From the NCBI GenBank assembly GCA_024137785.1, contig JAHRHZ010000289.1:20706512-20770511 (forward strand): DNA of 64,000 nt, in the 5' to 3' direction. Shown here piece by piece: positions 2,311 through 61,399 of this stretch (its first letter is position 1; each line of letters opens with the position of its first letter). Source of the DNA: Ginglymostoma cirratum (taxonomy: Eukaryota). The notes beneath the pieces are model-generated. The model saw nothing but the letters and a program-made list of their open reading frames with translations, was not told the origin of the DNA and made no database searches. The position numbers were made by a program, and so were the translations under genes.

Positions 2311-2367
2311 TTTTTGTAATATCACATCACCATCCCACTATCCATCCTCAAATAGTCTAGTGGAACG

Positions 2368-4668
2368 AAGAAGTTGCTGGAAAGGTTCAGCAGGTCCGGC
2401 AGCGTCTGTGAAGAGAATGTCTGTGAGTTAACGTTTTGGGTCCGGTAACCCTTGCTCAGAACTGATGCTAGCTAGGAAAATGTTGGTTTATATGCAGAAG
2501 ATAGGGTGGTGGGAGGAATTAAGGAGTAAACAATAGGTCAGGATAGAGCTCAAAGAGAGAAAAGACAGACAAAGAAGTGGATAACAATCTGGCTGGATGA
2601 GTGAATAGCTGATAATGGAGACTGTTAGTGGCTAGCAGCAGGTAGTATGCAATGGCAGACCATGTGATAACAAGGCCTGGTGCATGGGATTGGGAGCTAG
2701 CACATGGTAGAGTTCAGGCCCTAAAATTATTGAACTCGGTATTAAGTCCGGTGGATTGCAGGATCCGCAAGTGGAAAATGAGATGTTGTTCTTCCAGCTT
2801 GTGCTGAGCTTCACTAGAGCACTACAGCAAGCCTGAGACAGAGATGTTGACCAGGGAACAGGGTGGTGTGTTACAGTGGCAGGCAACTGGAAGCTCAGGG
2901 TCATTTTTGTGAGCAAAACATAGGTGTTCTGCGAAATGGTCCCTTTCCATGTCCATCCCCCAGCAGGATGGTCTCAGGTCTCTCCGCTTCTTCCTGGAGC
3001 AAAGGCCCGAACTGTCCCCACCCACCACCACCCTCCTCTGCATGGCTGATCTTGTCCTCACCCTTAACAACTTCTCTTTTAACTCCTTCAGGTCAGGGGG
3101 GTGCCCATAGGTACTCCCATGGGCCCCAGTTATTCCTGTCTTTTCGAGGGATATGTGGAACATTCCTTGTTCCAGTCCTATTCCAGGCCCCACCCACAAC
3201 CCTTTCTGCAATATATCAATGATATCATCGGTGCTGCTTCCCTCTCTTGTCCAGAATTGGAAAAGTTCATCAATTTCACTTCTACCCCATCCTCACTTTC
3301 ACCTGGTCTATCTCTGACGCCTCCCTTCCCTTCCTCGACATCTGTTACCATTTCTGGGGATAGACTGACCACTAATATCCACTATAAACCCACTGACTCC
3401 CACAGCTACCTGGGCTATACATCCTCATACCACACTTTCTGTAAAGACTCCATTCCATTCTCTCAGTTCCTCTGTCTCTGTCACATATGTTTCAATAAGG
3501 CCAATTTCAACAAGACAGCCTCTGAAATGTCCACTTCCTTCCTCAACTGAGGATTCCCCAGCACCTTTGTCAACAGAGCTCTCACCTGGGTCTGACCAAT
3601 CTCCCTCCCTTCAACCCTCACCCCCTCTCTTCCCTCTCTCAACAGCGATAGGGGTCTCCTTCTCCTTAGCTGCCATCCCACCAGCATCCACATCTAGAAG
3701 ATCATCAGCTGCTATTTCCACCCCCTCCAGTGAGATGCCACCACCAGACACATATTCTCTCCCCTCCCTTGTCTGCCTTCAGCAGGGACTGTTCCCTTCA
3801 GGACACCTTAGTCCACTCTTCCTTCACTTCCAACACCACCCAACAGCCCCATGGTACCTTCCCCTGTAACTGCCAAAGGTATAGTACCTGCCCATTTACC
3901 TCCTCCCTCCTCAGTACCCAAGAGCCCAAACTTACCTTCCAAGTGAAGCACCAATTTACCTGCACTTCCCTCAATCTAGTCTACTGTGTTCTCTGCTGAC
4001 AATGTGGTCTCCTCTACGTTGGGGAAACAAAGCATAGACTGGGTTATTGCTTCGCACAACACCTATATTCTGCCTGCAAAAAAAGACACTGAGCTTCCAG
4101 TAGCTGCCACTTTAACACACCATCCTGTTCCCTGACAAACATCTCCGTCTTTGGCTTGCTGTAGTTCTCCAATGAAGCTCAGTGCAAGCTGAAAGAACAA
4201 CATTTCAACTTCTGCTTGGGGATACTACAGCCTTCTGGACTCAATATTGAGTTCAAAAACTTTAGGGTCCAAAATCTTTCATCTCCTAGACCCCAACCCC
4301 GCACACCAAGCTGTGTTATCATATAGTCTGCCATTACACACTACCTAATGTTAGTCACTAACAGTCACCATTAACAACTATTCATTCTCCTAGCCAGATC
4401 GTTATCAACTCTTTTGTCTGTCCAACTGTTCCTTTCTCTCTTTGGGCTCTATCCCCATCTATCATTTACTCCTCACACTCTCACACCACCTTATCTTTTG
4501 CATATAAACCGTCATTTCCTAGCTACCATCAGTTCTGAGGATGGGTCACCAACCCGAAATATTAACTCTGGTTTCTTTTCACAGATTTTGCCAGATCTGC
4601 TGAGCTTTTCCAGCAACTTTTGTTTTTGTTTCTGATTTACAGCATCCGCAGTTCTTTCGGTTTTTATT
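2368..4668 (+). mobile_element. Neptune-type Penelope-like element, 5'-truncated, with an inverted copy of its 3' end at 2368-2940
   Basis: RT motifs GVPIGTPMGPSYSCLF and QYINDII. Linker GTFPCNCQRYSTCPF. GIY-YIG LVYCVLC..GLLYVGETK. HHR motif at 4531-4567. 15-bp TSD tagtctagtggaacg (2353-2367) / tagtttagtggaacg (4669-4683). Contains frameshifts and stops. Confidence 0.92.
4531..4567 (+). ncRNA. Minimal hammerhead ribozyme motif in PLE 3' terminus
   Basis: AGTT-CTGAGGA-T-GGGT(CACCA)ACCC-GAAA-TATT-AACT. Stem I is AGTT/AACT; stem III is the palindrome ATAT. Confidence 0.65.
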
Positions 4669-4779
4669 TAGTTTAGTGGAACGTCTGGTATATGTAACCA
4701 AATTGATGATCATTAGCTGTTGAGGAACAAATCGAAATTTTCATATTAGTTTGCTGTAATCTGGTACAATAACAACAAC

Positions 4780-6290: not shown

Positions 6291-7803
6291 TTGACATTCA
6301 CCACAATCCAAATAGTGTCCAGATTTCAATGAACCCTCAAGCAGATTCAGATTCACTGAAACAAACTCAAACATTCTAAGTTTTTGTACTGAAATCATTC
6401 AAGAGATTTTCTCCATCAAGTCTTTCTAACCTGAACATAATTTATTCAGTGGACAGTGATTGCTATGTGCAAGGATAATGAATGCATTGAAGATATGAAA
6501 ACTTAGACTCCATTTCCCTGAATGTATTTGAACTGTGATAGTGTGAGCTACCGCAGAGTAGTTATACAGTGTTTCTCCCCCCCTTTTTTAAACCTGTTTT
6601 CTCTTTAGTAATTTTATTATTAGTTTTGTTGATCTCCAGGGACTATGGGTAGTAAACAAAATTATGCAGGAGATGAGGTATTCTGCTTTAAATGCAATCT
6701 ATAACAAGCACTTTATTACCATAATATTGGTGCAAACTGCAGTAATTAGGACAAAAATTGACAACAGAGCAGTTTCAACACATAACAAATCTTTCAATTT
6801 CCTTTTCTTAAGAGCAAACAATTCTCCTGCATTTGAAAAATTTCTGGAACAGTTCATGAATAAGAGATGACAGTCAAAATTTCTTTCCAAATCTTAAGGG
6901 CTCTGTAGTTCTCCTAAACTTTTAGATTGGACCCTCGGTTGATATTTAACATAATAAGAAATGTATGAGTTTAGATTTGGGTTAGGGTATATTCAAATTG
7001 TCAAAAATATCAATGCACTTCAAAGCAATGCAGTGACTTTCAGGTTTATCAGGCAGATTCAGCTGCATGCATAATCTCTGCTGAGGAAGCTTGTTAGTGA
7101 TTTGAACACTGAAACCAGTGAATGTAGTGACATTTTAACTGGTATTTAAGTTTAGAGCCGGATGCTTAGGTTTTCTGGGAAGTGCCAATGAAATCAAAGT
7201 GAGAATAAGTTGGCAATTTATAGGGCCTCATTAATAATAAATAGCAAAGTGATGTCTTACGTCATACTGCTTTAGGATTTTATCGAAAGTGTTAACCATA
7301 GGTTACAATGCACTTTGGAAGTCTTGGACTCAAGATCAAGCCGGGTGTTACTTTGATTACAAATGAGGACAAAATGAGAAGAACAACAATCAGCTGTGAA
7401 CAGGTTGTAGTCAGGAGAGGACAGCAGAGGGCGTAGGTTTGTACGTGACACTTTGGTATTTGTAGCTGAGAGGGTGCTGTCACTGATCTTCTTTCCTTTC
7501 ACAGGTGCCAAGGGCCTAATTGGTTTACAGTGGTCAAGGGTCAATTACTAATGAGTGTCAACAAGAAGACGCTCTTCTTAACTTAACAAGATGTAGTTTG
7601 TTGTATGATTATGATTGAGTTAAAATTACATTATTCAATTAAATATTGTTGCTAAGCCTGAGCAGACCTGGGAGTATTGGTGTGCACTTCTACAGATGCT
7701 AAGATGTTCTGCCTTATCCCCAGCTAAGCCTGAGAAGCATCATTAGATTGGATGGAGCTTAATGCAGTTGGAAAATTAATCCTTTCAAAATCGTTACCTT
7801 ATA

Positions 7804-8014
7804 TAACGGAAATAGAAATTGCTGGCAAAACTCAAGCGGTCGGGCAGCATCTGTGGGAAGAATGCAGAGTTAACATTTTGAGTACAGTGACTTGTCATCA
7901 GAAGATCAACATTAATTCTGCTTTCTCTCTACAGATGCTGCCGGACCTGCTGAGTTTCTCCAGCAATATCTGTTTTTGCTTCAGATTTTCAGTGTCCACA
8001 GTTCTTTGATTAAT
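7804..8014. mobile_element. Palindromic PLE-terminus mini-element (decayed HHR on the minus arm)
   Basis: Inverted arms gaaattgctgg..gcagcatctgt / acagatgctgc..ccagcaatatc. The minus strand has CTGATGA..AAAATGTTAACT at 7868-7903. 11-bp TSD gttaccttata (7793-7803 / 8015-8025). Confidence 0.8.
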
Positions 8015-8129
8015 GTTACCTTATACGATACCATTAACTGTAAAATGGGGAGTATCCACCCTGTCAGAGGTTCAGTTTCCAATATTTCTTGGAAAATCAG
8101 TATTTTTTAAAGGTGAGAATGTCATTGTC

Positions 8130-12497: not shown

Positions 12498-13030
12498 TGG
12501 TAGTACAGCACTTGAGCATTAGTGAAAAGAGACACATTTTGTCATTTCGTCCGGCATTCTTCAGGAAGTATTACACTAACAACTGATATAAGATTCTCGA
12601 CCAGGCTTATAGTGCGGCATACCTGCATGTTCTAGAAGTTATGTTTGTTAATGCACAAATCCCTTGTTCTTTGCAAACTGAATGAACACTTTTATATATT
12701 TGCACCTGTTTTATCTCATCAAAATAGATGACAAATGTTCCCTGGTTCATCGCTCCCAGGACACCTTGACCAATCAGAGTCAACCTGCCTAGTTAAATTT
12801 AAATAAAGCCTGGCAGTTAATTGTCAGTCATCACCTAATTGCTTCAAACTCTATGGTAATGCCTCTACTAATTAGAATATGCGTACCAACCAATCAGCAC
12901 TCTCCTCTCACGCAGTATGAATGTTGATTACCTTTTACATTGCTAACTCTTGTAAATTATTCTGGTTAGTGTAAGATAAAAAGCTTCAACAAAATGTCTC
13001 ACTTTCAGCAACACCTAAGTTTGAATACTG
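12498..13030. mobile_element. Old PLE 3' fragment of another family, with inverted terminus
   Basis: Plus strand KILDQAYSAAYLHVLEVMFVNAQIP (12590-12665) resembles a GIY-YIG C-terminus. Inverted ends 12498-12568 / 12960-13030. The minus arm keeps CTGAAGA-ATGCCGGAC-GAAA (12545-12564). Confidence 0.55.
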
Positions 13031-14782: not shown

Positions 14783-15990
14783 TCGTTCAACGCATCATCC
14801 TCCACCACTTCGGCTACCTGCAATCTGACCCCACTACCAAGGACATTTTTCCCACCCCACCCTTATCTGCCTCCCGGAGGGACCGCTCTCTCCGTGACTC
14901 CCTTGTCCGCTCCAAACTCCCCACCAGCCCCACCACACCCGGCACTTATCCCCGCAACCGCAGGAAGTGCTACACCTGCCCCTTCACCTCCCCCCTCACC
15001 CCCATCCCAGGCCCCAAGAAAACCTCCCACATTAAACAGATGTTCACCTGCACATCTGCTAATGTGATATGACAAGGTGTAGAGCTGGATGAACACAGCA
15101 GACCAAGCAGCATCAGAGGAGCAGGAAAGCTGACATTTCGGGCCTAGACCCTTCTTCATACTGTATCTGCTGTCCCCGACGTGGCTTCGTCTACATCAGG
15201 GAAACCAAGCGGAGGCTTGGAGACCACCTTGTGGCGCACCTACACTCGGTTCGTGACAAACGACTGCACCTCGCAGTCGCGAACCATTTCAACTCCCCCT
15301 CCCATTCCTTAGACAACATGTCTATCCTGGGCCTCCTCTAGTGCCACAATGATGCCACCTGAAGGTTGCAGGAACAGCACCTCATATTTCGCTTGGGAAC
15401 CCTGCAGCCCAATAGTATCAATGTGGACTTCACAAGCTTCAAAATCTCCCTGCCCCCGACCACATCCCAAAACCAGCCCAGCTCATCCCCACCTCCCTGA
15501 CCTGTCCATCTTTTCTCCCACCTATTCACTCCTCTCACCTCAACACCCACCCCCACCTCCTACCTATCAGCGTCATCCCTGCCTCCTTGTTCTGTCCATC
15601 TTCCCTTGACTGACCTAGCCCCATCCTAACTCCCCACCTACACTCACCTTTACTGGCTCCATCCCCACCTCCCTGACCTGTCCATCTTTTCTCCCACCTA
15701 TCCGCTCCTCCCACCTAAACCCCCACCCCATCTCCTACCTACCAGCCTCATCCCCACTTCCTTGACCTGTCTGTCTTACACTTGACTGACCAACCCCCAT
15801 CCCAACTCCCTATGTCCACTCACCTTTATTGGCTCCATCCCCACCTCCTTGACCTGTCCATCTCCTCTCCACCTATCTGCTCTTTTATCCATCTTCCATC
15901 CACCTCCCTCTCTCTATTCATTTCAGAATCCACTTGCCCTCACCCATTTTTGGAGAAGCATCCAGACCCAAAACATCAGCTTTCCTGCTC
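14783..15990 (+). mobile_element. Neptune-type PLE 3' fragment (linker, GIY-YIG, 3' UTR)
   Basis: QRIILHHFGYLQSDPTTKDIF..RNRRKCYTCP (ORF 14695..15072); same family as 51225-52342. Interrupted at 15071-15157. Decayed HHR at ~15945-15985. Confidence 0.9.
15071..15157 (-). mobile_element. 87-bp PLE-terminus/HHR mini-element inserted in a PLE endonuclease region
   Basis: Host gtgatat|actgtatc is split by gacaaggtgtagagc...cttcttc. The minus strand reads GAAGA-A-GGGTCTAGGCCC-GAAA-TGTC-AGC. Confidence 0.8.
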
Positions 15991-16330: not shown

Positions 16331-17421
16331 TCAGGTTATAACACAGATAACTTTTGGTATAAAGAATTTACATGAGCAAGCTCAAAAATTCTTACATATT
16401 AAATATGTAGCAAAATCTAGGCAAAAATACTATACACAAATGTGTATGTTTTAACAGCACTGATTATTTTAAGCTATACCTCTTTTTTTTTTTACTTATG
16501 CCATCAATTTAGCAGTGGAGCCCATTCTTCTATTTAAATGCGCTGCATTTTTAAATAATGCCAATGCATTTAATGAGTTCAGCATAAACTCTTCAAACAA
16601 AGATTTCACATATTTTTCTAATAAGATGGTTGTTCTCTGTGTGATATTATATTTGAGGTTTATGACATACAATCCAGACTCACTGGAATCATGTTATGGA
16701 CAATACAAGTTTGGGTTTTAGAAATAGCTTTCCCCTCTTTGTCAGTCCCATTATAGCCAATTCACATTACTGGAACATGTGTTATAGGAGAACCCCCTGT
16801 ATCATGTAGTGTAACTCCTAATTTGGGCAATCAGCAAGATTTACAAGAAAGGAATGGGTATTTGTCTCTGTGATAGTAAACAAAATCCAAAGCTGGTCCT
16901 AGGAGTGCGGTGTAGGTGAGTGTTGCATTAGGGGGAGTGTGAAGTGGAAGAAGTTGTGGATATGAATGGTTGCCAAACCTGTTTGGACAAATTCCTTGAG
17001 GTTTCATCACTTCAACCTCTCCACCTTCTCTATCACCAGCTCCACCACTGGTTACCTGAGGCTCCTACTTTCATAACAGACCCCTCAAGTCAAGAGAACT
17101 GATTATTCAAAAACCAACTGGAAGGGTGTTATGCAGACTTTTCCCTGTGCCAAGTACTTTTCCAGCTAATTAATGAAAATTTTCAAAGAAAATAGACAGA
17201 AAATTAGTAAAGATCCTGTCGTCCTTCACCTTGGTTTCTTGCAGCAGTGTCATGGAGATTAAATATTCATTCATGGAAAATCCAGAAAACAGCAAGAATG
17301 TAGGTGACTGGGTGTGTGCATTAGAGAGGGAGTGAATATGGTTGCTGTCAGTCCTTCTAGCAGCAGGACAAAGCATTGGCTGCCAGTTCCAACCACTCCA
17401 CTGCTAGAGAATCTCAATGCG

Positions 17422-17546
17422 AAATATGGATGCTGGATATCTGAAATAGAAATGGAAAATGGTGTAAGCATTCTTAACAGATCTGGCAGCATTCGTGGTG
17501 GGAGAACGAGAACTAACATTTCAGGTTGATGACCTTTCATCAGAGT
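17422..17546 (-). mobile_element. Single-arm PLE-terminus mini-element headed by an HHR
   Basis: The minus strand starts at the HHR and continues with the PLE terminus (..atgctgccagatctg..tttcagatatccagcatcc). Confidence 0.7.
17512..17546 (-). ncRNA. Minimal hammerhead ribozyme motif
   Basis: ACT-CTGATGA-A-AGGT(CATCA)ACCT-GAAA-TGTT-AGT. Stem I is ACT/AGT, stem II is AGGT/ACCT. Confidence 0.65.
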
Positions 17547-17965: not shown

Positions 17966-18139
17966 GTGGCATGATGACATCTAAGAATGTGAATCAGCCT
18001 TTATTCAATATCATTTCTTCTTTTTATTCATTAAATCATGGGGTTCAGATGTTTTTCTCTTCAGTACTACAGAGATGCACAGATATCTATCCTGAAAATA
18101 TTGAACTCTCAAAACTCTCAAATCAGCATCTTTATCTTA

Positions 18140-18270
18140 CGAAAGGTCATGAGCTGAAGTTAACACTGTGTTTCTCTCTCCACAGACCGAGCCTGGCTTG
18201 CTAAGAACAATACATCCAGCATTTTCTGATTTTATTTCAGATTTCCATCATCCACAGATTTTAGCTTTTT
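18140..18270 (+). mobile_element. Decayed PLE-terminus mini-element
   Basis: gaaaggtcatgagctgaagttaacactgtgtttctctctccacaga...tttcagatttccatcatccacag matches the HHR-headed terminus; the core is broken. Confidence 0.55.
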
Positions 18271-23310: not shown

Positions 23311-23460
23311 AAAATTATCCTTACATGTGTTCCTGAAAATAGAGAATACAAGGATGAATGAAAGTTAAATGTAATAAATGGCATTGTTTCTATCAGTGAA
23401 TGATTTTCTTTTTGTTTTTCAATGTACATTTACAAAGTTAATTTCACTTCATTTCAGCAT

Positions 23461-23592
23461 AATCAGAAGTCATTTGACACCAGGTTATAGTCCAACATGT
23501 TTATTTGAAATCACATGCTTTTGGAGCTATAACCTGGTGTCATGTGACTTCTGACTTTGTCCACTCAAGTTCAACACTGGCACCTCCACATC
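23461..23592. mobile_element. Palindromic terminus mini-element, probably from another PLE family
   Basis: tcagaagtcatttgacaccaggttatag (23463-23490) is inverted relative to ctataacctggtgtcatgtgacttctga (23527-23554). Only a remnant (ctccaaaagc, minus strand) of an HHR 3' half is left. Confidence 0.6.
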
Positions 23593-23948
23593 ATCACAGC
23601 ATGGCTTTTAACATCAGCCCTTGGTGGCTATTAGATGAAGTATAATGGTAGGTGTAAGAGCAAAGCATAGGGTTGGGTAAATAGTTAGAATGAGTTGGCA
23701 CTAATTAGACACTGAGAGATAAAGAGCCATGGAAGTTGGGTACAGAGGCATAGGTTGGAATGGACGGTATGAGTGATGTGTGGGTGAAAGGTATGAAGTG
23801 GCAAGTGGCACGTGGGGAGTGCTTTGAGAGAAGAGGTATCAGGGTCATTGTTAGGATTTTGTTTTTCTCTTCTTATAAAGTGCCAGTGCATTAATGCAGG
23901 CATTCTGGCTAACCCGACTGTTACTCAACAGCCTCTGTACTCTGTCAC

Positions 23949-24080
23949 AACTGAAAGAACTGTGGACGCTGTAAATCAGCGACTAAAACAGAAATTGCTG
24001 GAAAAGCTCAGCAGGTCTGGCAGCATCTGTGGAAAGAAATCACAATTAACATTTTGGGTCGAGTGACTCTTCCTCAGAAA
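23949..24080 (-). mobile_element. HHR-headed PLE-terminus mini-element with full tail
   Basis: Minus strand CTGAGGA-A-GAGTCACTCGACCC-AAAA-TGTT-AATT, followed by the same terminus as 4531-4668. Confidence 0.8.
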
Positions 24081-24517
24081 ACTTGAGGACTGCAACAATA
24101 TAGTAATGCAGGCATTCCAGTTAACTTCATTCTTACTCAACAGCCTCTGTACTCTATCCATCCCATTATCTCTCACAGCCCCCCGGAAGCAGGTCCAACT
24201 TTAAGGACCTTCTTTTTTAACCTGGATCAGACTTGTGGAATGAGGAATTGTCCCAACACTGGAAAATTCCAGCCTAATTGACAAAAAATGGCAGTTGATG
24301 CATTTCAAAAGGGAGCATGGACTTCAGTGCACCGCTGGTAAAAAATAAAATTTAACATCAATATGAAAATCAATATAAAATAACTGCCGGCTGTAGGATG
24401 AAGTGTTAAGAATACATGCTGAGCATGTACGTAAGGGGCTGTGTTGTAATGACGTTCATCATGTCAAACTGGGACCAGAGTCCAGAGGATTACGGGTAAG
24501 TCCTTTAGAGAGGAAGA

Positions 24518-31329: not shown

Positions 31330-31504
31330 CATCAGAGGAGCAGGAAGGCTGACATTTCGGGTCTAGACCCTTTTTCTGAAGAAGGGTTTAGACCCGAAAC
31401 GTCAGCTTTCCTGCTCCTCTGATGCTGCTTGGCCTGCTGTGTTCATCCAGCTCTACACCTTGTTATCTCAGATTCTCCAGCATCGGCAGTTCTTACTATC
31501 TCTA
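31330..31504. mobile_element. Palindromic PLE-terminus mini-element (left arm cut by the gap)
   Basis: catcagaggagcaggaaggctgacatttcgggtctagaccc is inverted relative to gggtttagacccgaaacgtcagctttcctgctcctctgatg; the right arm ends in the full tail. Confidence 0.85.
31374..31405 (+). ncRNA. Minimal hammerhead ribozyme motif
   Basis: CTGAAGA-A-GGGT(TTAG)ACCC-GAAA-C-GTC. Core is intact; stem I is only about 2 bp. Confidence 0.65.
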
Positions 31505-46664: not shown

Positions 46665-46787
46665 ACACCTCCAACTTCAATTTTAAATTAAAAACTGAAA
46701 GAACTGTGGATGCTGTAAATCAGGAACAAAAAAAAAGTTGCTGGAAAAGCTCAGCAGGTCTGGCAGCATTTTTGAAGATAAAAACAG

Positions 46788-46825
46788 AGTTAATGTTTCG
46801 GGTCCGGTGACCCTTCCTCAGAACC
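46788..46825 (-). ncRNA. Hammerhead motif, left arm of the twin
   Basis: GGTT-CTGAGGA-A-GGGT(CACCGG)ACCC-GAAA-CATT-AACT (stem III CG changed to CA). Confidence 0.6.
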
Positions 46826-46862
46826 GTTCTGAGGAAGGGTCACCGGACCCGAACCATTAACT
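46826..46862 (+). ncRNA. Hammerhead motif, right arm of the twin (core variant GAAC)
   Basis: GTT-CTGAGGA-A-GGGT(CACCGG)ACCC-GAAC-CATT-AACT. Confidence 0.5.
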
Positions 46863-48197
46863 CTGTTTTTTCCTTCAAAGATACTGCCAGACCTGCTGAG
46901 CTTTTCCAGCAACTTTGTTTTTGTTCAATTTTAAATTGTCAGTGGTATTCACTCGAATCAACAAAGTGCCAACTTAAATGTGTAAATTGGATTCCAATGA
47001 TGCAGTATTGAAATCTTGGGTCCAGGTTTTCAAGGTAAAATCATGGGTTCATCCTTTATAGGGCTTCCTATTGAGGAAAGCAAATAGGTTTAGACAAGGC
47101 TGAATCAGTTGAGTTGCATTATATTTTTCATAATTTCCTGGATCCTCCCTTCTCTCAGTTTCTTGCTAAAGGTGATGAGAGGTTCTACTCCTTGTAGTTT
47201 TATGAGAATGGATATGATAATGAGGTGCTGATGAAAATTATCAGCATCAAATGTAACAGACTGTGAAGAAAGGATAGAATAGTCTGTACTAGTACACAAT
47301 GTTCTTATAGAGAGCACATGTTCATAAAAGAGTGTTCAAAAATGTACCAGAGTTAAATAACAGTCAATTATGGGTAATGGGAAGCCCTTACAGGCCACAA
47401 ATTACCAGAAGAGACAAGGATAGCCATCTCCCCAATGTGCATGTTGGAACCCTAAGCAATAAGCCTTGTATGAACACAAACCACTCTCCTCAAAGCCAAA
47501 TAAAGACTCGTGAGTCTGAGCCTTCCTGTTGGGCACAATCCCGACATTGACCTCAATTCCAGAATGGAACTCAGAAGTGGCCATGACTGGATATTGGTTG
47601 TGATCTCCCTGGAAGCTGCCAATTAAGAAGCTATCTCTTGAACTCCCATCTATTAAGGATGGCTGGCAAATCCAAGTAGGCAGGCAGCCCATTGGAATAG
47701 CTGGCAGAAGTCTCTGGCTGGTAACGCAACCAGGAAAGATGGGCATTGCTGGGGAAAACAAGAGATTACAAAGCTCCCTCAAAAGGAGGTGCTCTCTGCA
47801 GCCTTGTGAAAATTATGTTATATAATGGATGGCCATAGCCACACCTGGGTGAGTGTGTGCAGGTGTAGGTGGCTCGCTGTGCTGCCATCAAGAGGTTACC
47901 TTCAGAGCTCCATCTCAATGAGAAGCCCATCCACCATTGAGGAAGTACCCAGCTGACCCTCAGTGAGCCAAAAGGTAAACTAAATTGGTTAACAATGTGG
48001 CAAAGTCGCTTGGACGTGTCAAGGTACTGCATGGCTGATTGACACTTTTCTTCTGGTCCTGCCTCCTTATCTTGCCCATGAGACCAGGAAAATTAGTTCT
48101 TTGGATTTCGAAGGTCAATGTATCTGTTTCCATTCAATCCTTTGCTATATACTTTAGGATAATCCTGCTACAGCTATTGGGATTTGATGGAAACCTC

Positions 48198-49460: not shown

Positions 49461-49511
49461 TACAATTTAATCTGGATTTTTGGATTTTGAACCAACAGCT
49501 AATGAGTTTGG

Positions 49512-49619
49512 CTGATTCAGTTCTGAGGAAAGGTCACTGTACCTGAAACGTTAATTCTGTTTTCTCCTCCACAGATGCTGCCAGACCTGCTGAGGTTTTC
49601 CAGCAACTTTGTTTTAGTT
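49512..49619 (+). mobile_element. 108-bp HHR-headed mini-element with TSD
   Basis: Exact 14-bp TSD gctaatgagtttgg (49498-49511 / 49620-49633); contains only the HHR and the PLE terminus. Confidence 0.9.
49519..49556 (+). ncRNA. Minimal hammerhead ribozyme motif, intact
   Basis: AGTT-CTGAGGA-A-AGGT(CACTGT)ACCT-GAAA-C-GTT-AATT. All core bases and all three stems are present. Confidence 0.75.
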
Positions 49620-49654
49620 GCTAATGAGTTTGGACTGTGTTAATGATGTACATA

Positions 49655-50649: not shown

Positions 50650-50824
50650 ACCTCCGGATCCAACACATCATCCTCCGACACTTCCGCCATCTGCAATCAG
50701 ACCCCACCACCAAAGACATTTTTCCCTCCCCACCCTTATCTGCCTTCCGGAGGGACCACTCCCTCCGCGACTCCCTTGTCCGCTCCACACTCCCCTCCAG
50801 CCCCACCACACCCGGCACTTTTCC
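50650..50824 (+). mobile_element. Young Neptune PLE fragment abutting the gap
   Basis: Nearly identical (about 5 substitutions) to ~51346-51520. Confidence 0.9.
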
Positions 50825-51224: not shown

Positions 51225-51227
51225 ACA

Positions 51228-51980
51228 GTGGTCGAGAACGCCCTCGACCGTGTCTCCCGCATTTCCCGGAACACATCCCTCACGCCCCGTCCCCGCAACA
51301 ATAACCAAAAAAGAATCCCCCTCGTCCTCACATACCACCCCACCAACCTCCGGATCCAACGCATCATCCTCCGACACTTCCGCCATCTACAGTCAGACCC
51401 CACCACCAAAGACATCTTTCCCTCCCCACCCTTATCTGCCTTCCGGAGGGACCACTCCCTCCGCGACTCCCTTGTCCGCGCCACACTCCCCTCCAGCCCC
51501 ACCACACCCGGCACTTTTCCTTGTAACCGCAGGAAGTGCTACACCTGCCCCCACACCTCCTCCCTCACCCCAATCCCAGGCCCCAAGAAGACATTCCACA
51601 TCAGGCAGAGGTTCACCTGCACATCTGCCAATGTGGTATACTGCATCCGCTGTACCCGTTGTGGCTTCCTCTACATCGGGGAAACCAAGCGGAGGCTTGG
51701 GGACCGCTTTGCAGAACACCTGCGCTCAGTTCGCAACAAACAACTGCACCTCCCAGTCGCGAACCATTTCAACTCCCCCTCCCATTCCTCAGATGACATG
51801 TCCATCCTTGGCCTCCTACAATGCCACAGTGATGCCACCCGAAGGCTGCAGGAACAGCAAATCATATTCAGCCTGGGAACCCTGCAGCCCAATGGCATCA
51901 ATGTGGATTTCACAAGTTTCAAAATCTCCCCTCCCCCAACCGCATCCCAAAACCAGCCCAGCTCATCTCCACCTCCCTAA
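51228..51980 (+). CDS. PLE polyprotein C-terminus: Cys linker plus GIY-YIG endonuclease (partial; the 5' part lies in the gap)
   Basis: RIPLVLTYHP..GTFPCNRRKCYTCP..VVYCIRCTRCGFLYIGETKRRLGDRFAEH..PVANHF..H..LGTLQPNGIN; 250 codons without a stop. Confidence 0.9.
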   Translation: MVENALDRVSRISRNTSLTPRPRNNNQKRIPLVLTYHPTNLRIQRIILRHFRHLQSDPTTKDIFPSPPLSAFRRDHSLRDSLVRATLPSSPTTPGTFPCNRRKCYTCPHTSSLTPIPGPKKTFHIRQRFTCTSANVVYCIRCTRCGFLYIGETKRRLGDRFAEHLRSVRNKQLHLPVANHFNSPSHSSDDMSILGLLQCHSDATRRLQEQQIIFSLGTLQPNGINVDFTSFKISPPPTASQNQPSSSPPP

Positions 51981-52231
51981 CCTGTTTTTCCTCTCACCTC
52001 AAGCCACACCCCTATCTCCTATCTACTAACATCATCCCGCCCCCTTGACCTGTCCGTCCTCCCTGGACTGACCTATCTCCTCCCTACCCCCCTACCTACA
52101 CTCACCTTTATTGGCTCCATCCCCGCCTCTTCGACTTGTCTGCCTCCTCTCCACCTATCCTCTCCTCTATCCATCCTCTATCCGCCTCCCCCTCTCTCCC
52201 TTTTTATTTCAGAACCCTCTTCCCCTCCCCC

Positions 52232-52267
52232 ATTTCTGATGAAGGGTTTAGGCCCGAAACGTCAAGT
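52232..52267 (+). ncRNA. Minimal hammerhead ribozyme motif, best-preserved copy
   Basis: ATTT-CTGATGA-A-GGGT(TTAG)GCCC-GAAA-C-GTC-AAGT. Canonical CUGAUGA/GAAA core; predicted cleavage after GUC (52263). Confidence 0.8.
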
Positions 52268-53214
52268 TTTCCTGCTCCTATGATGCTGCTTGACCTGCTG
52301 TGTTCATCCAGCCCCATGCTTGTTATCTCGGATTCTCCAGCTTCTGCAGTACCTTTTATCTCATGAATGAGACTTTTTTTTCATATTTAGTGTTTATGAC
52401 TGAGGGTTCTGTCAGAATATCGGATATTTTTCTTGTCTCCATATGGCACCTAAGGTCTGCTCAGAGGCTACATGATGACTGAATATAGAATTGGTATTTG
52501 GATATGAGATGCATGGAGATAGCATTGGGCTTATGGGGAGATTGGGAGGTAGATGGGCCATGAGGGCAAGAAAGTCTAGCAGCCTCTTTCACAACTTGGC
52601 TCAAATCTCAAAGAATCATGCTAAATCTTCTAACTAGCTGTCTTCACCATTTGCAGAAAGGATAAAGATTCACATATTGATTTATGCAGTACTTTTGAGT
52701 CTGTTCTGATTCTATGTATTTCTCGTGTTAAATGGGCCTATTAGGAGGAAATAAATTTGCTGATTTTTCTTTTAAAATCTGGTGTCAATAACAGCAAATG
52801 CTGTTTAGAAATTAGGTTTGCCAATTAATTTAAAGTTGTTATATAAAATGGTATGTGTAGATAGATCTTTCATTCTGATATACAGCCTTTTCAATGAGAG
52901 TGAAGTTTTATTAATGAGATTGTTGCAGATAGAGCAGATAACACGGGCTTAAGGCATTTTGGCTACTAAGCTGAATAATGTAAGAATGTGAAAGACAGGA
53001 AGCAAAGGAGAATTTTAATTAGGATTGCTGAAATGTCATAGACTATCAATTCTCCAAACATTTTCTCAGAATTTCATTATGTCCCTGTCTTACCAATGTA
53101 TAAATGTATGAAATTATCAGGAGCATCCAAAGTAATTTATTTTCCCTCTGTTTATAATTTTATTTATTATCCTGGCTGCATAATGATCCAGTTGCTACGT
53201 GAGATGACTTGCTT

Positions 53215-54890: not shown

Positions 54891-56358
54891 AACTCTTTTC
54901 GTTATCTCATGTCTGGAGGACCTTTTGCTGTCATGAATCTTCATGACTAGAACCTATAATAAAGCTTAAGTGTGTAAAAGGAAGTTTGGAAACTATTCCA
55001 TTCATTTGAGAAGAGTGAGATGAATGGGTATTTGTACATTATGTGCAGTCAGACATAAACTAAAAACTTTTTGATAATATTACATGACTTCGACTCAAGC
55101 TCCTACCTAATACTATTCTTTGACCAGAAAATGTAGTACAGATCATTTCTGTCAAGGAATTTAGCCACATTATCATGAAAATATGGTCAAAATCCTGACC
55201 CCGTGATTCTATGATTCCAGAAGCATATAATCAAATTTTGATAACTGTTTCTCGATATTTCAACTGGAAATTTCAAAATTCCTTTATCAACACATTTATT
55301 TTGACTTGTTACCAGTTAAGGTTATTTCAGATAAACTGAGAAATTTTACAGCGAGCTGCTACATGACAGTGGATATAAGTAGATGGAGTTAGCTACAAGA
55401 TTCAAGTAGTGGAGAAGCTCATTAGCTGAAGTTTTCCTTGAGAAAATATTTATAATCTGAGGTTATGCAGCTGCTTTGTTTTCGACCATTACTGCATTGT
55501 AGCTCCTAGCACTTGGCATTCATCACAAATAATGGTTCTATTCCATGAGATCAAGCTGAAATGTTATGGAACCATCTCAAAACTGCTGAATATTTGCTTT
55601 ACATTTTTTTTAATCTTGTAAAATAACCTGGAAAGAGAGATTGTGCTGGCACCTAAACTCTGGGTTATAAGATGGTCCACACTCTTAGTCGAAAACATTA
55701 TTATTTTGGTTCTTTAAGAGGCTATCATTCAAAAATGAATTGATTTTTCATTTTTAAACAATATATTTCTCTCTACCTTCCTGTTTCCTCGGATCAGACA
55801 GCATTTCAGTGAGAAGGCAAAGAAGTAATCTGCTTCCAGGCTGGTGCATTTTTGAATCTATTGTAGAGAGCAAACTAGACTTCTCATGTTGATTCTGCAC
55901 AAGATTTTCTCTTCATTTTTATGGATGACCTCCTGTTTTCCTCATAGATCTCTTAACAGCAGCATATCTGAGAAAAGTAACTCATAGTGTGTGGGTCTAC
56001 ACCTAGGAACTGAATTCTAAACCCTTAGTGGGACTATGCTTTGGAGCTTGAGCTCCATTACCTAATTTTAGCATTTCCTTTTCATAGGCGTGGAAAATCT
56101 CTTAGATTCAATTATTTTGGTTAATGTTGTGGATTTTGCATCCAGCCGGATACCTTTACCTAATGTCACAATACTTATGTTATCCCTCACAACATGAAAA
56201 AACTAGGTATGGATAACTTGGTATTTAAAAATGCAAGAGACCTTATTGCAGCTGTCTACTACATATAAATATTACCGCCACAGGCAATTCAGTATCTAGG
56301 CCAAGGCGTAGAGCTGGAAGAACACAGCCGGCCAAACAGCATCTGAGGAGCAGGAAAG

Positions 56359-56390
56359 ATGACGTTTCAGGCCTAAACCCTTCTTCAGAA
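56359..56390 (-). ncRNA. Hammerhead motif, left arm of the twin
   Basis: CTGAAGA-A-GGGT(TTAG)GCCT-GAAA-C-GTC; core intact, stem I weak. Confidence 0.6.
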
Positions 56391-56392
56391 AA

Positions 56393-56424
56393 TTCTGAAG
56401 AAGGGTCTAGGCCCGAAACGTCAG
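56393..56424 (+). ncRNA. Hammerhead motif, right arm of the twin
   Basis: TT-CTGAAGA-A-GGGT(CTAG)GCCC-GAAA-C-GTC-AG; core intact. Confidence 0.65.
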
Positions 56425-57618
56425 CCTTCCTGCTCCTCTGATGCTGCTTGGCCTGTTGTGTTCATCTAGCTCTACACCTTGTTACATCAGATTGTCCAGC
56501 ACCTGCAGTTCCTACTATCTCAGTATCTAGGCCATTTGATTATAAAGAGTAACATGCTTTCAATAAAGTGTCATGATTCAAGTAATCCAAGTTAAGATGC
56601 GATTTTTATACCCTTAGGTCACATGCCATGATACAGTGATGATGTCATGAGCATGTCTCTTAAAGGCTTACTCTGCTACAATTTCATTTAAGGTATATTA
56701 ATATACTGACTGTGAGACATAGCACAAAACTTGATATTGCCAGTCCCTTTACTTTCCTTTCTGTTTGTTACAAAAGTCAATGGGTTAAATCATACTTTTT
56801 TTTGGCTAAATGTAAGTTGTGTTGAGTTTTTTGGAAGGATTCACAAAGTGAGGCCCAGTGATACATTTTTCTGTAGTTTACCAAGTCCATCTTATTAACT
56901 AGGGCATCCCTTGCATTTGATTCTAGCTCCATCTCACCAAATCTTCTGCTCCTCTCTGCTGTCTGACCCAAAACATCAATCTCCATTTTTTATTTCATTC
57001 TCCTCCCATGTTCTCCTGTCAATCAGGCAAATGTGAAAGAAGAATTGTTTTACCCCTGGATGATCATGCATTCTAAGACATCACCCCAATACAGCTCCAC
57101 ATCAAGGCACCTGGTGCCCTTCTTAAAGTGGTTAGAGCTTTATAAACCTTTTAAGTATGGGTAAGAAGATATAGTTGAGATGCCAGTATGAATTTGCTGT
57201 AACTCAGTACTAACATTGTGACTTCATTAAGTCACCCACAAATCATGAGGAGGTCATTTACTCCAGTGGATTCTCACCTTTACTGTAATTCAAAACATTG
57301 CAGAGGTGTAGGTGACAACTTGCCAGAAGCCTGTACAGATTTTATCACTCAATTTTAAACTACACACAGTGGTGGTCATTGCTGGCTCCCAAACCAACCA
57401 CAAATCACTAGCAGAATAGATGGGAGGAATCTACCACAGCATTGCTTGAAGAGAGATCCTGCTATAATTAAGGAAGTCTTGAAGTTGATCTGGCACTCAT
57501 ATTTCCTTCAGTCTCTCGAGCGTGTTCAATCTTAAAAGCTTCTTCAAGTTGATCACACTGCCGCTTTGTGTGATGATGAAATCTGCTGCTTAATTTAATC
57601 CCCAATGTTTCTTTTCAG

Positions 57619-57669: not shown

Positions 57670-58296
57670 GTAAGCAGCACAATTCATACTTACAGCTTTT
57701 CTATTCATGAGGCTCCTTACTATCACTGGATAGATGATGCATTTGCCTTGCCTACTTACTGCTGGATCTGAACTCCGGAACAAAAGGAATTGTATTAACT
57801 CCCAAATTGAATGTGTATACAGTCAATATGAGTTAGATTTTTTTACTCTGTTTTTTGTAAACTAAAAGTTGGAGTTTTAAACTCCCACCCACTTTTAGAT
57901 TGAATAGTAAAACCTAATACTTCACTGATCCTCTTCAGAGCTTTGTGAACCTTATTTTCTATATTGGGCTTGAATTTTCAGATGTTTACATTGACCTGGG
58001 CTATTCCACCAGCTCGGAGGTGGAACTGGATGCAGTAAGGATGGATAAATAGTGAGGGCAGTCACTACAGGACAGTTCTCTGACACAACCTCACCCCCAG
58101 TAAACTGTCCCCAGCTTGGCTAACTGCTCCATGAAAGGGACCAGTCAATGAATATAAGAGCCATTTTTACAATGCTTCCAGAATTTTGCCAACATTGGAG
58201 TGACCTCCAAAGTAACGGCAGAGGCTGACAGTCCAATTGAGGCAACGATAGATCAACAGTGGCCTTGGAATTAGAAACACATTGCCCCAGATATGA

Positions 58297-60813
58297 CGAG
58301 ATAGCAAAAACTGCAGATGTTGGAGTCAGGGATTACACAGTGTGGAGCTGGAGGAACACAGCAGGCCAGGCAGCATCAGAGGAGCAGGAAAGTTGACGTT
58401 TTGGTTCGGGACCCTTCTTCAAAAATGGGGAGGGGGAAGGAAGCCGGGATATAAATAGGGAGAGGAGGAGTGGGGCTGGGAAAGGTAGGTGGGATTGTGA
58501 TAAGTGAGTGCAGGTAGGGAGTGGTGGGGATTGGTCAGTGGGATATGGTGGGGTGAATAAGTGGGAGAGAAGTTGGACAGGTTGTGTCAGGCCAAGGAGG
58601 CAGGAGGGAGGTTGGGTGGGGCTGGTGAAAGATAGGTGGGGTGGTGATAAATTAGAAGAATGTAGTAGGGGTTGGTCAGTGGGAAGAGTAGGGCGGATAG
58701 CTGCGAGAAGACGGACAGGTTGTGTCAAGTCAAGGAGGCAGGGATGAGAGGAAGGGTTGGACATGGGATGAGGCCGGGAGTGGGGAGATTTTAAAACTGG
58801 TGAATTCTATGTTCAGACCATTGGGCTGTAGGCTCCCAAGGCAGAATATGAGGTGTTGCTCCTCCAGTTTGCATATGGTGTCATTGTGGCACTGGAGGAG
58901 GCCCAGGATGGACATGTCACCCAGTGAGTGGGAGGACGAATTAAAATGGTTGTCGATCAGAAGGTGTTGTCATTTGTTACATACAGAGCTCAGATGCTCT
59001 ACAAAACAGTCCCTGAGTCTACGCTTGGTCTCACCAATGTAGAGGAGGCCATATTGGAAGCAACAGATACAGTAGACCAGGTTGGAGGATGTACAGGTAA
59101 ACCCCTGTTGGATTTGAAATGTTTGCTTTGGGCCTTGGATGGAGGTGAAGTGGGGGAGGTGCAGGGGCAGGTGTAGCACTTCCTGTGTTTGCAGGGATAG
59201 GTGCTGGGGGTGGTGGGGTTAGTGGGGAGTGTGGAGCTGACGAGGGAGTCACGGAGACCCGTTCCTACAAAAGGCAAATAAGGGTGGGGAGGGAAATATC
59301 TCTTTGGTTGTGGGGTCAGATCATAGGTGGTGGAAGTGGCAGAGAATGATGTGTGGATGCGGAGGTTGGTGGTGTGGTATGTGAAGCCCAGGGGGATTCT
59401 GTCTTTATTTTTGTTGGGGGAGGGGGTTTGTGGCTAGAAGTGTAGGAAATGCAAGAGATGTGGTTAAGGACATTTTTGATCACCAGAGGAGTGTTGCGGT
59501 CCTTGAAATAGGAGGACACCTGGGATGTCTGGCATTGGAATGCTCCATTCTTGGGAGCAGATGTGACAGAGGCAGAGGAATTGAGAGTGGGAGATCACAT
59601 TTTTGTAGGAGGATGGGTGAGAGGACGTGTAGTCCAGGTAGCTAGAAGAGTCGGTGGGTTTGAAATAGCTGTTGGTGTTGAGGCAGAGAGGTCCAGGAAG
59701 GGAGGGAGGTATCGGAAATGGTCTAGGTGAATTTGAGGTTGGGGTGAAAGGTGTTAGTAAAGTTGATGAACTGTTCAAGCTCCACTTTCAGAGCATGAAG
59801 CAGCTCTGAAAGTCATCAATGTAGCGGAGGAAGAGGTTGGAAATAGTGCCAGTATAACAGCTGAAAAGGGACTGTTCCATGTATCCTACAAAGAGGTGGG
59901 CATAACTTGGACCCATGCAGGTGACCATGGCCACCCCCTTAGTCTGCAGTAAGTGGGAGGAGTTAAAGGGGAAGTTGTTCAGGCTAAGGACAAGTTCTGT
60001 AAAGCAGATGAGGGTGTCGGTGGCAGGGGATTGGTTGGGCTTGTGGGAGAGGAAGAAGCGGAGGTCTTTTAGGCCATATGCATGGGGAATACAAGTGTAT
60101 AGGGACTGGATGTCCATAGTGAAGATGAGGTATTGGGAGCCAGGGAATTGGAAGTCTCAGAGGAGGTGGAGGGTGTGGGTGCTGTCCTGCCTGTTGGTGG
60201 AGAGTTCCTGGACCGGGGAAAAAGACAGAGTACCTGGACCGGGTGGAGAAGACAGAAGGATACCATAGCAAACTGGAGGAGCAACACCTCATATTCCACC
60301 TCGGGAGCCTACAACCTGATGGCCTTAACATAGAACTCATCAGTTTTAAAATTCCCCCACCCGACTCCTGGCCTCATCCTAAGACCAAACCTCCCTCTCA
60401 TCCCCACCTCTTTGACCTGACACAACCTGTCCATCTTCTCTCCCACCTATCTACCCTACCCTTCCCGCAAACCAATCCCCTCTATCCCCTACATGCATCC
60501 AACCTATCACCACCCACCTATCTTTCACCAGTCCTACCCATCCTCCCTCCCGCCTCCTTAACCCGACACAACCTGTTCATCTTCTCTCCCACCTGTCCGC
60601 CCCACCTGTCCCGCTGACCAATCCCCACCACACCAAACCGTATTCACCTATCACCATCCCTCCTACCTTCCCCAGCCCCACCCCTCCTCTCTATTTGTCT
60701 CTGAGCTCCCTTCTCCATCCCCATTTCTGAAGAAGGGTCCTGACCGAAATGACAACTTTCCTGCTCCTCTGATGCTGTCTGGCCTGGCTGTGTTCCTCCA
60801 GATCCACACTGTG
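58297..60813 (-). mobile_element. Neptune-type PLE, 5'-truncated, with an inverted 3'-end copy (~60258-60813)
   Basis: MDIQSLYTCIP..KGVAMVTCMGPSYAHLFVG..LFLRYIDDF; LVYCICCFQYGLLYIGETKRRL. 15-bp TSD ttgccccagatatga (58282-58296) / ttgccccaaatatga (60814-60828). Decayed HHRs at ~58391-58426 (minus) and 60723-60757 (plus). Confidence 0.93.
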
Positions 60814-61399
60814 TTGCCCCAAATATGAACCCTTGGGCATGAAAGTCTATAACCCATCTATTAAAAGTCCTGGAGAGGAGTTTTCCTTCCACCCTCATGT
60901 CCCTACCAGATTCAAGTCTCTTTATTTCATAAAGCCTTCACAGGTGATGTCTCCACGTTGACATAATTGTGCATTTACCTGCCAGCTTTGCCAGCATATA
61001 CCTTGCCCTCTGTTACTGCCAGCCATTGTTCCAGGCCCCAGATTGAAACTGCAACCTTGGGAGCTCATCTGTTGCATTTAATGGAATGGTAAGTGTGACA
61101 CAGCCACTGAGGAGACCATCCTTCTGAAAGTCACGATAGCAGGTACACTGATGAGGTGGCTGGATTTGGGATCAATTATCACATTATTAAAATATCACTT
61201 GTACTGTTCATGACTGGTCTTTTGGTGATGTTTAATTCAGAGCTTTCTCTTCCTGACCATAAACTGTTGACTGATTTACATATAAGTAACTAAGTGGTTT
61301 GCTCTTACACCATTATTTTTATATCAAATTCTGACTCAATCTTTGCTTTGTTTGCATAAACAGAAACTGAAGAACTCAAAACACAAAGCTTTTCTTTAT

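Follow-up and report, generated by a model that had tools for sequence, protein, structure and literature searches.

A short PLE insertion with head-to-head pseudo-LTRs in the shark Ginglymostoma cirratum

The insert at 56.3 kb of the 64-kb stretch of Ginglymostoma cirratum DNA analysed here (the window) is an insertion of a Penelope-like element (PLE), made up of an inverted pseudo-LTR (pLTR), a direct pseudo-LTR and a one-sided tail, all enclosed by a target-site duplication (TSD). It matches the published PLE insertion signature at its smallest size, and is a real new instance of a known pattern that also offers a modest mechanistic lead. The origin of the head-to-head inversions and one-sided tails of PLEs is stated as unresolved in the available text of two earlier studies (PMC8557442, PMC3846280). 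A literature search did not retrieve any account of shark palindromes that consist of pLTRs only and are centred on a start site; repeat databases (Repbase, Dfam), subscription papers and supplements may hold such cases.

The left TSD (56289..56303) and the right TSD (56520..56534) are exact 15-bp copies of one another, as the initial annotation had reported; in a control for chance, an exact shared 15-mer occurred in 19 of 20000 random pairs of 40-nt windows spaced 230 bp apart. Between the TSDs lie 216 bp (56304-56519) that had been described as palindromic throughout. Only 178 bp are so (56304-56481, arms 87% identical), and the last 38 bp (56482..56519, plus strand) constitute the tail, which is present on one side. 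The inverted arm (56304..56391, minus strand) is tail-less, with its proximal 3' end at 56304 and its 5' end at the centre, and the direct arm (56392..56481, plus strand) matches the terminus of a PLE at 51-52 kb. They meet at a head-to-head junction (56389..56394) located at the inferred RNA 5' end, which corresponds in long copies to an initiator-like A 4 nt before C3, the first base of the hammerhead core. There is no ORF or internal sequence between the arms. Target and element share 2 nt of microhomology at both insert junctions: the last 2 nt of the left TSD are complementary to the element at its tail-less end, with the arm-to-arm match reaching 56302, and the first 2 nt of the right TSD match the element's terminal TC. 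Of 87 sites compared between the arms, 11 differ, with 8 derived changes on one arm and 3 on the other; because the arms differ and because both carry derived changes, the palindrome is not the assembly fold-back that the initial annotation had kept in view.

An inverted pLTR followed by a pLTR and a tail is given as the typical PLE layout in the available text of PMC8557442. The accessible part of PMC3846280 describes Pen2a_Av, in which the inverted pLTR is 37 bp shorter than the direct one and a palindromic junction, a 31-bp tail and a TSD are found. Compared with what that source provides, the 56-kb insert is like Pen2a_Av in having a head-to-head inverted pLTR shorter by a tail of 30-40 bp, a palindromic junction and a TSD around the unit; it is unlike Pen2a_Av in that its junction occupies a set position immediately ahead of the hammerhead, and unlike rotifer cases such as Pen2a_Av in that its TSD is 15 bp (8-10 bp in those cases) and nothing lies between the arms.

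Parent family and related insertions in the window

The right arm and tail of the insert correspond to the final 130 nt of an element ending at 52363 (82% identity over 131 nt), which upholds the earlier assignment to the PLE at 51-52 kb and not to the family at 46.7 kb. This related copy (51225..52363, plus strand) is a 3' fragment comprising the end of the RT thumb, a linker motif resembling a zinc finger, a GIY-YIG domain, the 3' UTR, a pseudo-LTR and a tail. Its ORF has a Pfam match to GIY-YIG (E 8.9e-6), and its product shares 93% and 88% identity with proteins of Rhincodon typus and Stegostoma tigrinum, respectively (34 hits among 2841 candidates), matches that would probably point to a carpet shark as host; the 93%-identical relative carries RVT_1 together with GIY-YIG. 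Inspection of the translation by eye revealed a CCHH motif whose two cysteines fall between the boxes GIY and YIG, and a C-x4-C-x2-C motif in the RT-EN linker. As far as the available text of PMC8557442 goes, the former defines endonuclease-containing PLEs and a CX2-5CxxC linker motif is given for Neptune and Nematis elements. By its sequence, the parent family is an endonuclease-containing PLE with a predicted C-terminal GIY-YIG nuclease, and its linker motif would fit the Neptune (or Nematis) clade. The initial annotation, which placed the putative autonomous partner in the window, had the family right, but the copy is a fragment that spans residues 219-462 of a 469-aa relative and starts at an N gap, the RT core lying outside the window. 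A truncated second copy lies upstream of it. The stretches 50650-50824 and 51346-51520, which flank an N gap, are 97% identical duplicates; either the young PLE is partly repeated in tandem there, or two haplotypes overlap.

The 51-52-kb copy belongs to the same family as the 56-kb arms, yet is not their nearest copy: comparison with the right arm gives 13 differences over 85 sites for this copy, and 5 over 86 for each of two others, an arm at 31 kb and a solo pseudo-LTR at 15 kb. A profile search of the 64-kb window recovered 21 pseudo-LTR arms, of which 18 entered a tree, the 15.9-, 17.5- and 18.1-kb copies being left out. The 56-kb, 31-kb and 15-kb arms (family 1) formed one unresolved group (92/92), apart from the 46.7-kb family (99/96; family 2), and no palindrome-specific clade appeared among the 18 arms.

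All five composites with both ends readable (5/5), which span both families and sizes from 0.2 to 2.5 kb, have a TSD and two arms placed head to head, just one of which is tailed. Three are short: the 56.3-kb insert; a family-2 palindrome at 46676..46937, with a tail again of 38 bp on one side and an exact TSD (14/14); and an older family-2 palindrome at 7793..8025, whose tailed arm begins inside the hammerhead and whose TSD has an exact 11-bp core. Two are long, each with a TSD matching at 14 of 15 positions: a composite at 58282..60828, with a 1.9-kb tailed arm (minus strand) and a 0.56-kb tail-less arm (plus strand), and a family-2 composite at 2353..4683, with a 0.57-kb tail-less inverted arm and a 1.7-kb tailed arm. 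A second family-1 pair, the only other family-1 palindrome in the window, lies at 31330..31502. Cited in the initial annotation as a third example (31330-31504) with the same architecture, it is indeed head to head, but the CTGA box is missing from its left arm, which begins within the core and runs into a 400-N gap. A solo tail-less family-1 pseudo-LTR at 15071..15158 (minus strand) is inserted into another PLE copy. No convincing TSD was found for the 50.6-52.4, 14.8-16.0, 35-37, 17.4 and 18.1-kb copies, nor across the 31-kb gap. These data support a shared insertion mechanism behind the composites of both families, as had been proposed earlier. What does not fully hold is the independence then claimed for the recurrence: the pseudo-LTRs of the two families are homologous (nhmmer cross-hits mostly at E 1e-5 to 1e-11), so that their recurrence is not fully independent, and the layout is a known PLE pattern.

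Several further features of the window deserve mention. A palindrome of an unrelated repeat at 23449-23602 (palindromic over 23463-23554, 82%) is extended by 36 bp on one side and has a TSD-like pair that agrees at 10 of 12 positions; it has no other copy in the window and may represent a third PLE family, alike in layout but with its centre deleted. At 60200-60260, the head-to-head junction of the 58-60-kb composite contains an imperfect direct duplication of ~27 nt that resembles an end-joining templated insertion. A tailed family-2 solo at 23890-24160 is flanked by an imperfect duplication of ~55 bp, far longer than the other TSDs. At 17421-17544 (minus strand) and 18136-18262 (plus strand), two old solo pseudo-LTRs with tails, from yet another family, stand head to head 590 bp apart, with no common TSD. 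The solo at 15071-15158 sits in reverse in the nuclease-coding part of a copy of its own family, and only ~2 nt are duplicated around it.

Positions at which the arms begin and end

Short arms begin close to a fixed point. Eleven of the 13 start between -6 and +1 of C3 and the remaining two inside the core, a count in which the old 17.5- and 18.1-kb copies have approximate ends and from which the ambiguous 19.9-kb copy is left out; every short insertion event (9/9) has at least one arm starting between -6 and +1. A binomial on 9 of 11 arm ends was not relied on, since it treated paired arms as independent and lacked two copies. The seven long copies run hundreds of bases further upstream. The consensus motifs used were YYANWYY for the initiator and a TATA-like box. 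An initiator-like motif with its A at -4 is present in all eight copies tested (the seven long ones and that at 19.9 kb), which come from only about three related families, and occurs in the background at 1.3% of window positions. An exact TATA-like box lies at -28 to -31 from the initiator A in three of these eight copies, the other five having no exact match; initiator and box turn up together at 18 of 126400 positions. In the composite at 2353..4683, TATAAA and an initiator-like TCAGTT stand immediately upstream of the hammerhead.

The centres differ among all four palindromes, and that of the 56-kb insert is one base off two run-off ends joined via a 2-nt overlap. A centre placed at the RNA 5' end would be the simplest reason for a stop just past the structured hammerhead. 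Helix I pairing could also explain the A at -4, because that A is the first base of helix I. The available texts of PMC2377424 and PMC4209133 describe a TATA-less internal promoter for D. virilis Penelope, with a start well upstream of the hammerhead, which speaks against the proposed RNA start. Hammerhead cleavage was rejected as the source of the fixed 5' end, none of the 13 short arms starting at the cleavage site near +28. A D. virilis-like splice acceptor at helix I is unsupported as well: family 1 is without the AG, and the short copies of family 2 keep bases upstream of it. A splice-acceptor-like polypyrimidine tract ending in CAG lies at 52187-52211, 26 nt before the hammerhead core, where it overlaps the TATA-like position.

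The 3' ends are bimodal. Among the 18 arms read, nine end at a distal position and carry the tail, and nine end ~38 nt earlier, at a proximal position, and are tail-less. Four proximal-ended arms (15.1, 15.9, 19.9 and 49.5 kb) have no long inverted partner, and one of them has an exact 14-bp TSD; because the proximal site is also used by arms outside palindromes and composites, it looks like an independent priming site. The tail-less family-2 solo at 49498-49633, which has an exact 14-bp TSD, carries 4-5 extra 5' bases that could be a tiny inverted arm.

Routes to a head-to-head insertion

On balance, we favor as probable a dead-on-arrival PLE insertion formed in one event, in which both target strands prime cDNAs that run off their template and are joined head to head. 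The RNA would start at the initiator-like A, 4 nt before the hammerhead core and ~30 nt past the TATA-like box in the 3' UTR, and a nuclease would cut the two target strands ~15 nt apart. Each 3'-OH would then prime RT within uncleaved RNA, one at the distal start, giving the tail, and the other 38 nt inward, giving the tail-less arm; once 90-130 nt had been copied, both cDNAs would run off at the 5' end of the RNA, and end joining would give a palindrome centred on the transcription start. Because the promoter is not copied, each palindrome would form anew and would not amplify. A more specific version, which we entertain only tentatively, is that a dimer of the PLE protein primes both strands on separate RNAs at two RT start sites, that the run-off cDNAs are joined, and that the capped 5' end is the first base of helix I. 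If this two-RNA version is true, no antisense templates would be needed to explain the head-to-head inversions of PLEs and their tails on one side, and DNA sequence by itself would show where transcription of the element begins.

Twin priming of L1 offers a parallel, in that both target strands prime cDNA and an inversion arises inside the TSD. There, an upstream stretch of the same RNA is inverted, whereas the 56-kb insert duplicates the same terminal stretch and therefore needs two RNA 5' ends or a fold-back. The anole element Poseidon_Ac, as described in the available text of PMC11167929, has in vitro two internal RT start sites one tail apart, cleaves and extends both target strands, is predicted to be a dimer and uses uncleaved RNA as its main template. 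The shark case, read from DNA and with bimodal 3' ends that fit such a reaction, would resemble it in having two start sites separated by the length of a tail, in cutting both strands and extending them, and in its uncleaved template; it differs in belonging to another PLE clade and in its head-to-head joined products, which are not reported in that text.

Evidence on two-strand priming points in both directions. In its favor, the two kilobase-size composites have unequal arms. Two of the arm-to-arm mismatches are shared, in phase, by the 56-kb and 31-kb palindromes (P=0.04, post hoc), which is a weak hint of two templates; a site between those two, which groups by palindrome and not by arm haplotype, counts against that interpretation. 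At 46.7 kb (6/92 differences) and at 58-60 kb (6/85), the arms are each other's nearest copies, a pattern that would speak against two-strand priming, as it is also what fold-back predicts. Error-prone synthesis of the tail-less arm was considered and rejected: derived changes number 8 versus 3 at 56 kb (p=0.23) and 102 versus 95 when six composites are pooled (p=0.67).

The strongest competitor, which we judge somewhat unlikely, is that a tail-primed cDNA extends to the 5' end of the RNA and folds back to serve as its own template, its new end being joined or cut at the proximal site, again anew at each insertion. Such self-priming is near the published reading of palindromic inverted junctions in the available text of PMC3846280, accounts for the sister arms at 46.7 and 58-60 kb, and is compatible with the 56-kb arms having been identical at birth and decayed later to their present divergence. 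However, the centre would presumably call for a loop of 2-4 nt and additional bases that are not templated, the kilobase composites would require loops of >1 kb, and the coincidence of the tail-less end with the position used by solo copies is left unexplained. Short palindromes with fixed ends, at least four of which occur in 64 kb, allow a direct genome-wide test of two-template priming versus fold-back.

It is improbable that the palindrome is instead a non-autonomous lineage that amplifies from a master palindrome with PLE protein supplied in trans. The two mismatch sites shared in phase by the 56-kb and 31-kb palindromes would fit common descent, but, with respect to the tail, their haplotypes are on opposite sides, the two centres are not the same, and the 31-kb left arm is nearer the 56-kb right arm (3/47) than the 56-kb left arm (8/47). 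In addition, upstream promoter-like motifs are absent from the insert, and the lineage's RNA would be one hairpin: the insert transcript folds into a single hairpin of -137.8 kcal/mol (z -16, beaten by 0/200 shuffles). Spurious predicted proteins, used as a proxy for the centre in the form of a 45-residue read-through frame, yielded nothing of use for or against a lineage: 0/29 candidates matched, there were no candidates of near length, and a search of this proxy against 1.84 billion protein representatives gave one hit, without a matched stretch. Non-LTR retrozymes, as described in the available text of bioRxiv 10.64898/2026.07.22.740005 (see also PMC7229834), are like the insert in being short, non-coding, hammerhead-bearing and derived from PLE pLTRs. 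They form head-to-tail tandems with ribozymes on the same strand, in contrast to the head-to-head 56-kb insert, which has no sign of its own amplification.

It is very improbable that the palindrome is an artefact of folding back in the assembly or the library, or that it arose when a solo pseudo-LTR was later rearranged: the assembly does have N gaps, one of them beside the 31-kb example, but none lies within 5 kb of the 56-kb insert, both arms sit inside one exact TSD, only one side bears the tail, and the arm differences already noted fall on both arms.

Hammerhead motifs within the palindrome

The hammerhead motif quoted in the initial annotation is indeed found on both strands, with C3 at 56395 on the plus strand and at 56388 on the minus strand and 6 nt separating the boxes. 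CUGANGA and GAAA boxes, an NUH site and a palindromic helix III are present on each. The plus-strand core is a minimal type-I hammerhead (56395..56422, predicted cleavage after 56422) with a 4-bp helix II and a minimal ACGU helix III. The minus-strand core (56361..56388) is a degenerate version, keeping its boxes but with a G.U wobble in place of G10.1-C11.1 and helix I lost. Both cores had been called intact, which is accurate for the catalytic-box nucleotides; the wobble and the state of helix I, which as read from the alignment amounts to at most 2 bp on the plus strand and at most 1 bp on the minus strand, are at odds with it. Long parent copies retain 3-4 of the 4 helix I pairs, and part of helix I is missing from the insert because of the palindrome junction.

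Across 13 copies, 86% of cells are paired in the minimal type-I hammerhead fit, versus 12-47% in slid controls, and the covariation was matched by 5 of 500 shuffles, which is modest support given that related sequences can exceed shuffles. An Rfam scan of the whole 64-kb window gave 0 matches at the gathering score, and the hammerhead was the lowest-energy fold of a single arm in 0/6 sequences (z 0.05 to 1.26), which is no surprise with motifs this minimal. The PLE hammerheads described in the available text of PMC4209133 are likewise of type I, with an extra nucleotide that separates positions 9 and 10.1, a palindromic minimal helix III and a short helix I. That source also reports, in Schistosoma, minimal hammerheads in dual arrangement, with ~100-700 bp between motifs of opposite strand; unlike these pairs, the 56-kb motifs are 6 nt apart, with a 4-bp helix II and a helix I shortened by the junction.

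That the two ribozymes act together, or that their cleavage sets the centre, is barely credible even with catalytic boxes on both strands and family helices supported across the 13 copies: because the motifs sit on opposite strands, one RNA carries only one sense ribozyme; the pairing probability of helix II is 0.0 in the insert transcript in either direction (0.36 for the right arm alone); the centre lies ~30 nt from the cleavage sites, where no short arm starts; and one core is missing in two of the four palindromes. With a degenerate minus core and a transcript predicted to be one long hairpin, the insert is, by its modelled fold, no working twin ribozyme. The twin motif is a consequence of pseudo-LTR duplication and not a two-ribozyme device, and hammerheads in palindromes are probably passengers. 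In annotation, these palindromes are best recorded as PLE stubs and not as MITEs, hairpin RNA genes or paired ribozymes. An isolated hammerhead-like motif matching neither family profile lies at 12537-12564 on the minus strand.
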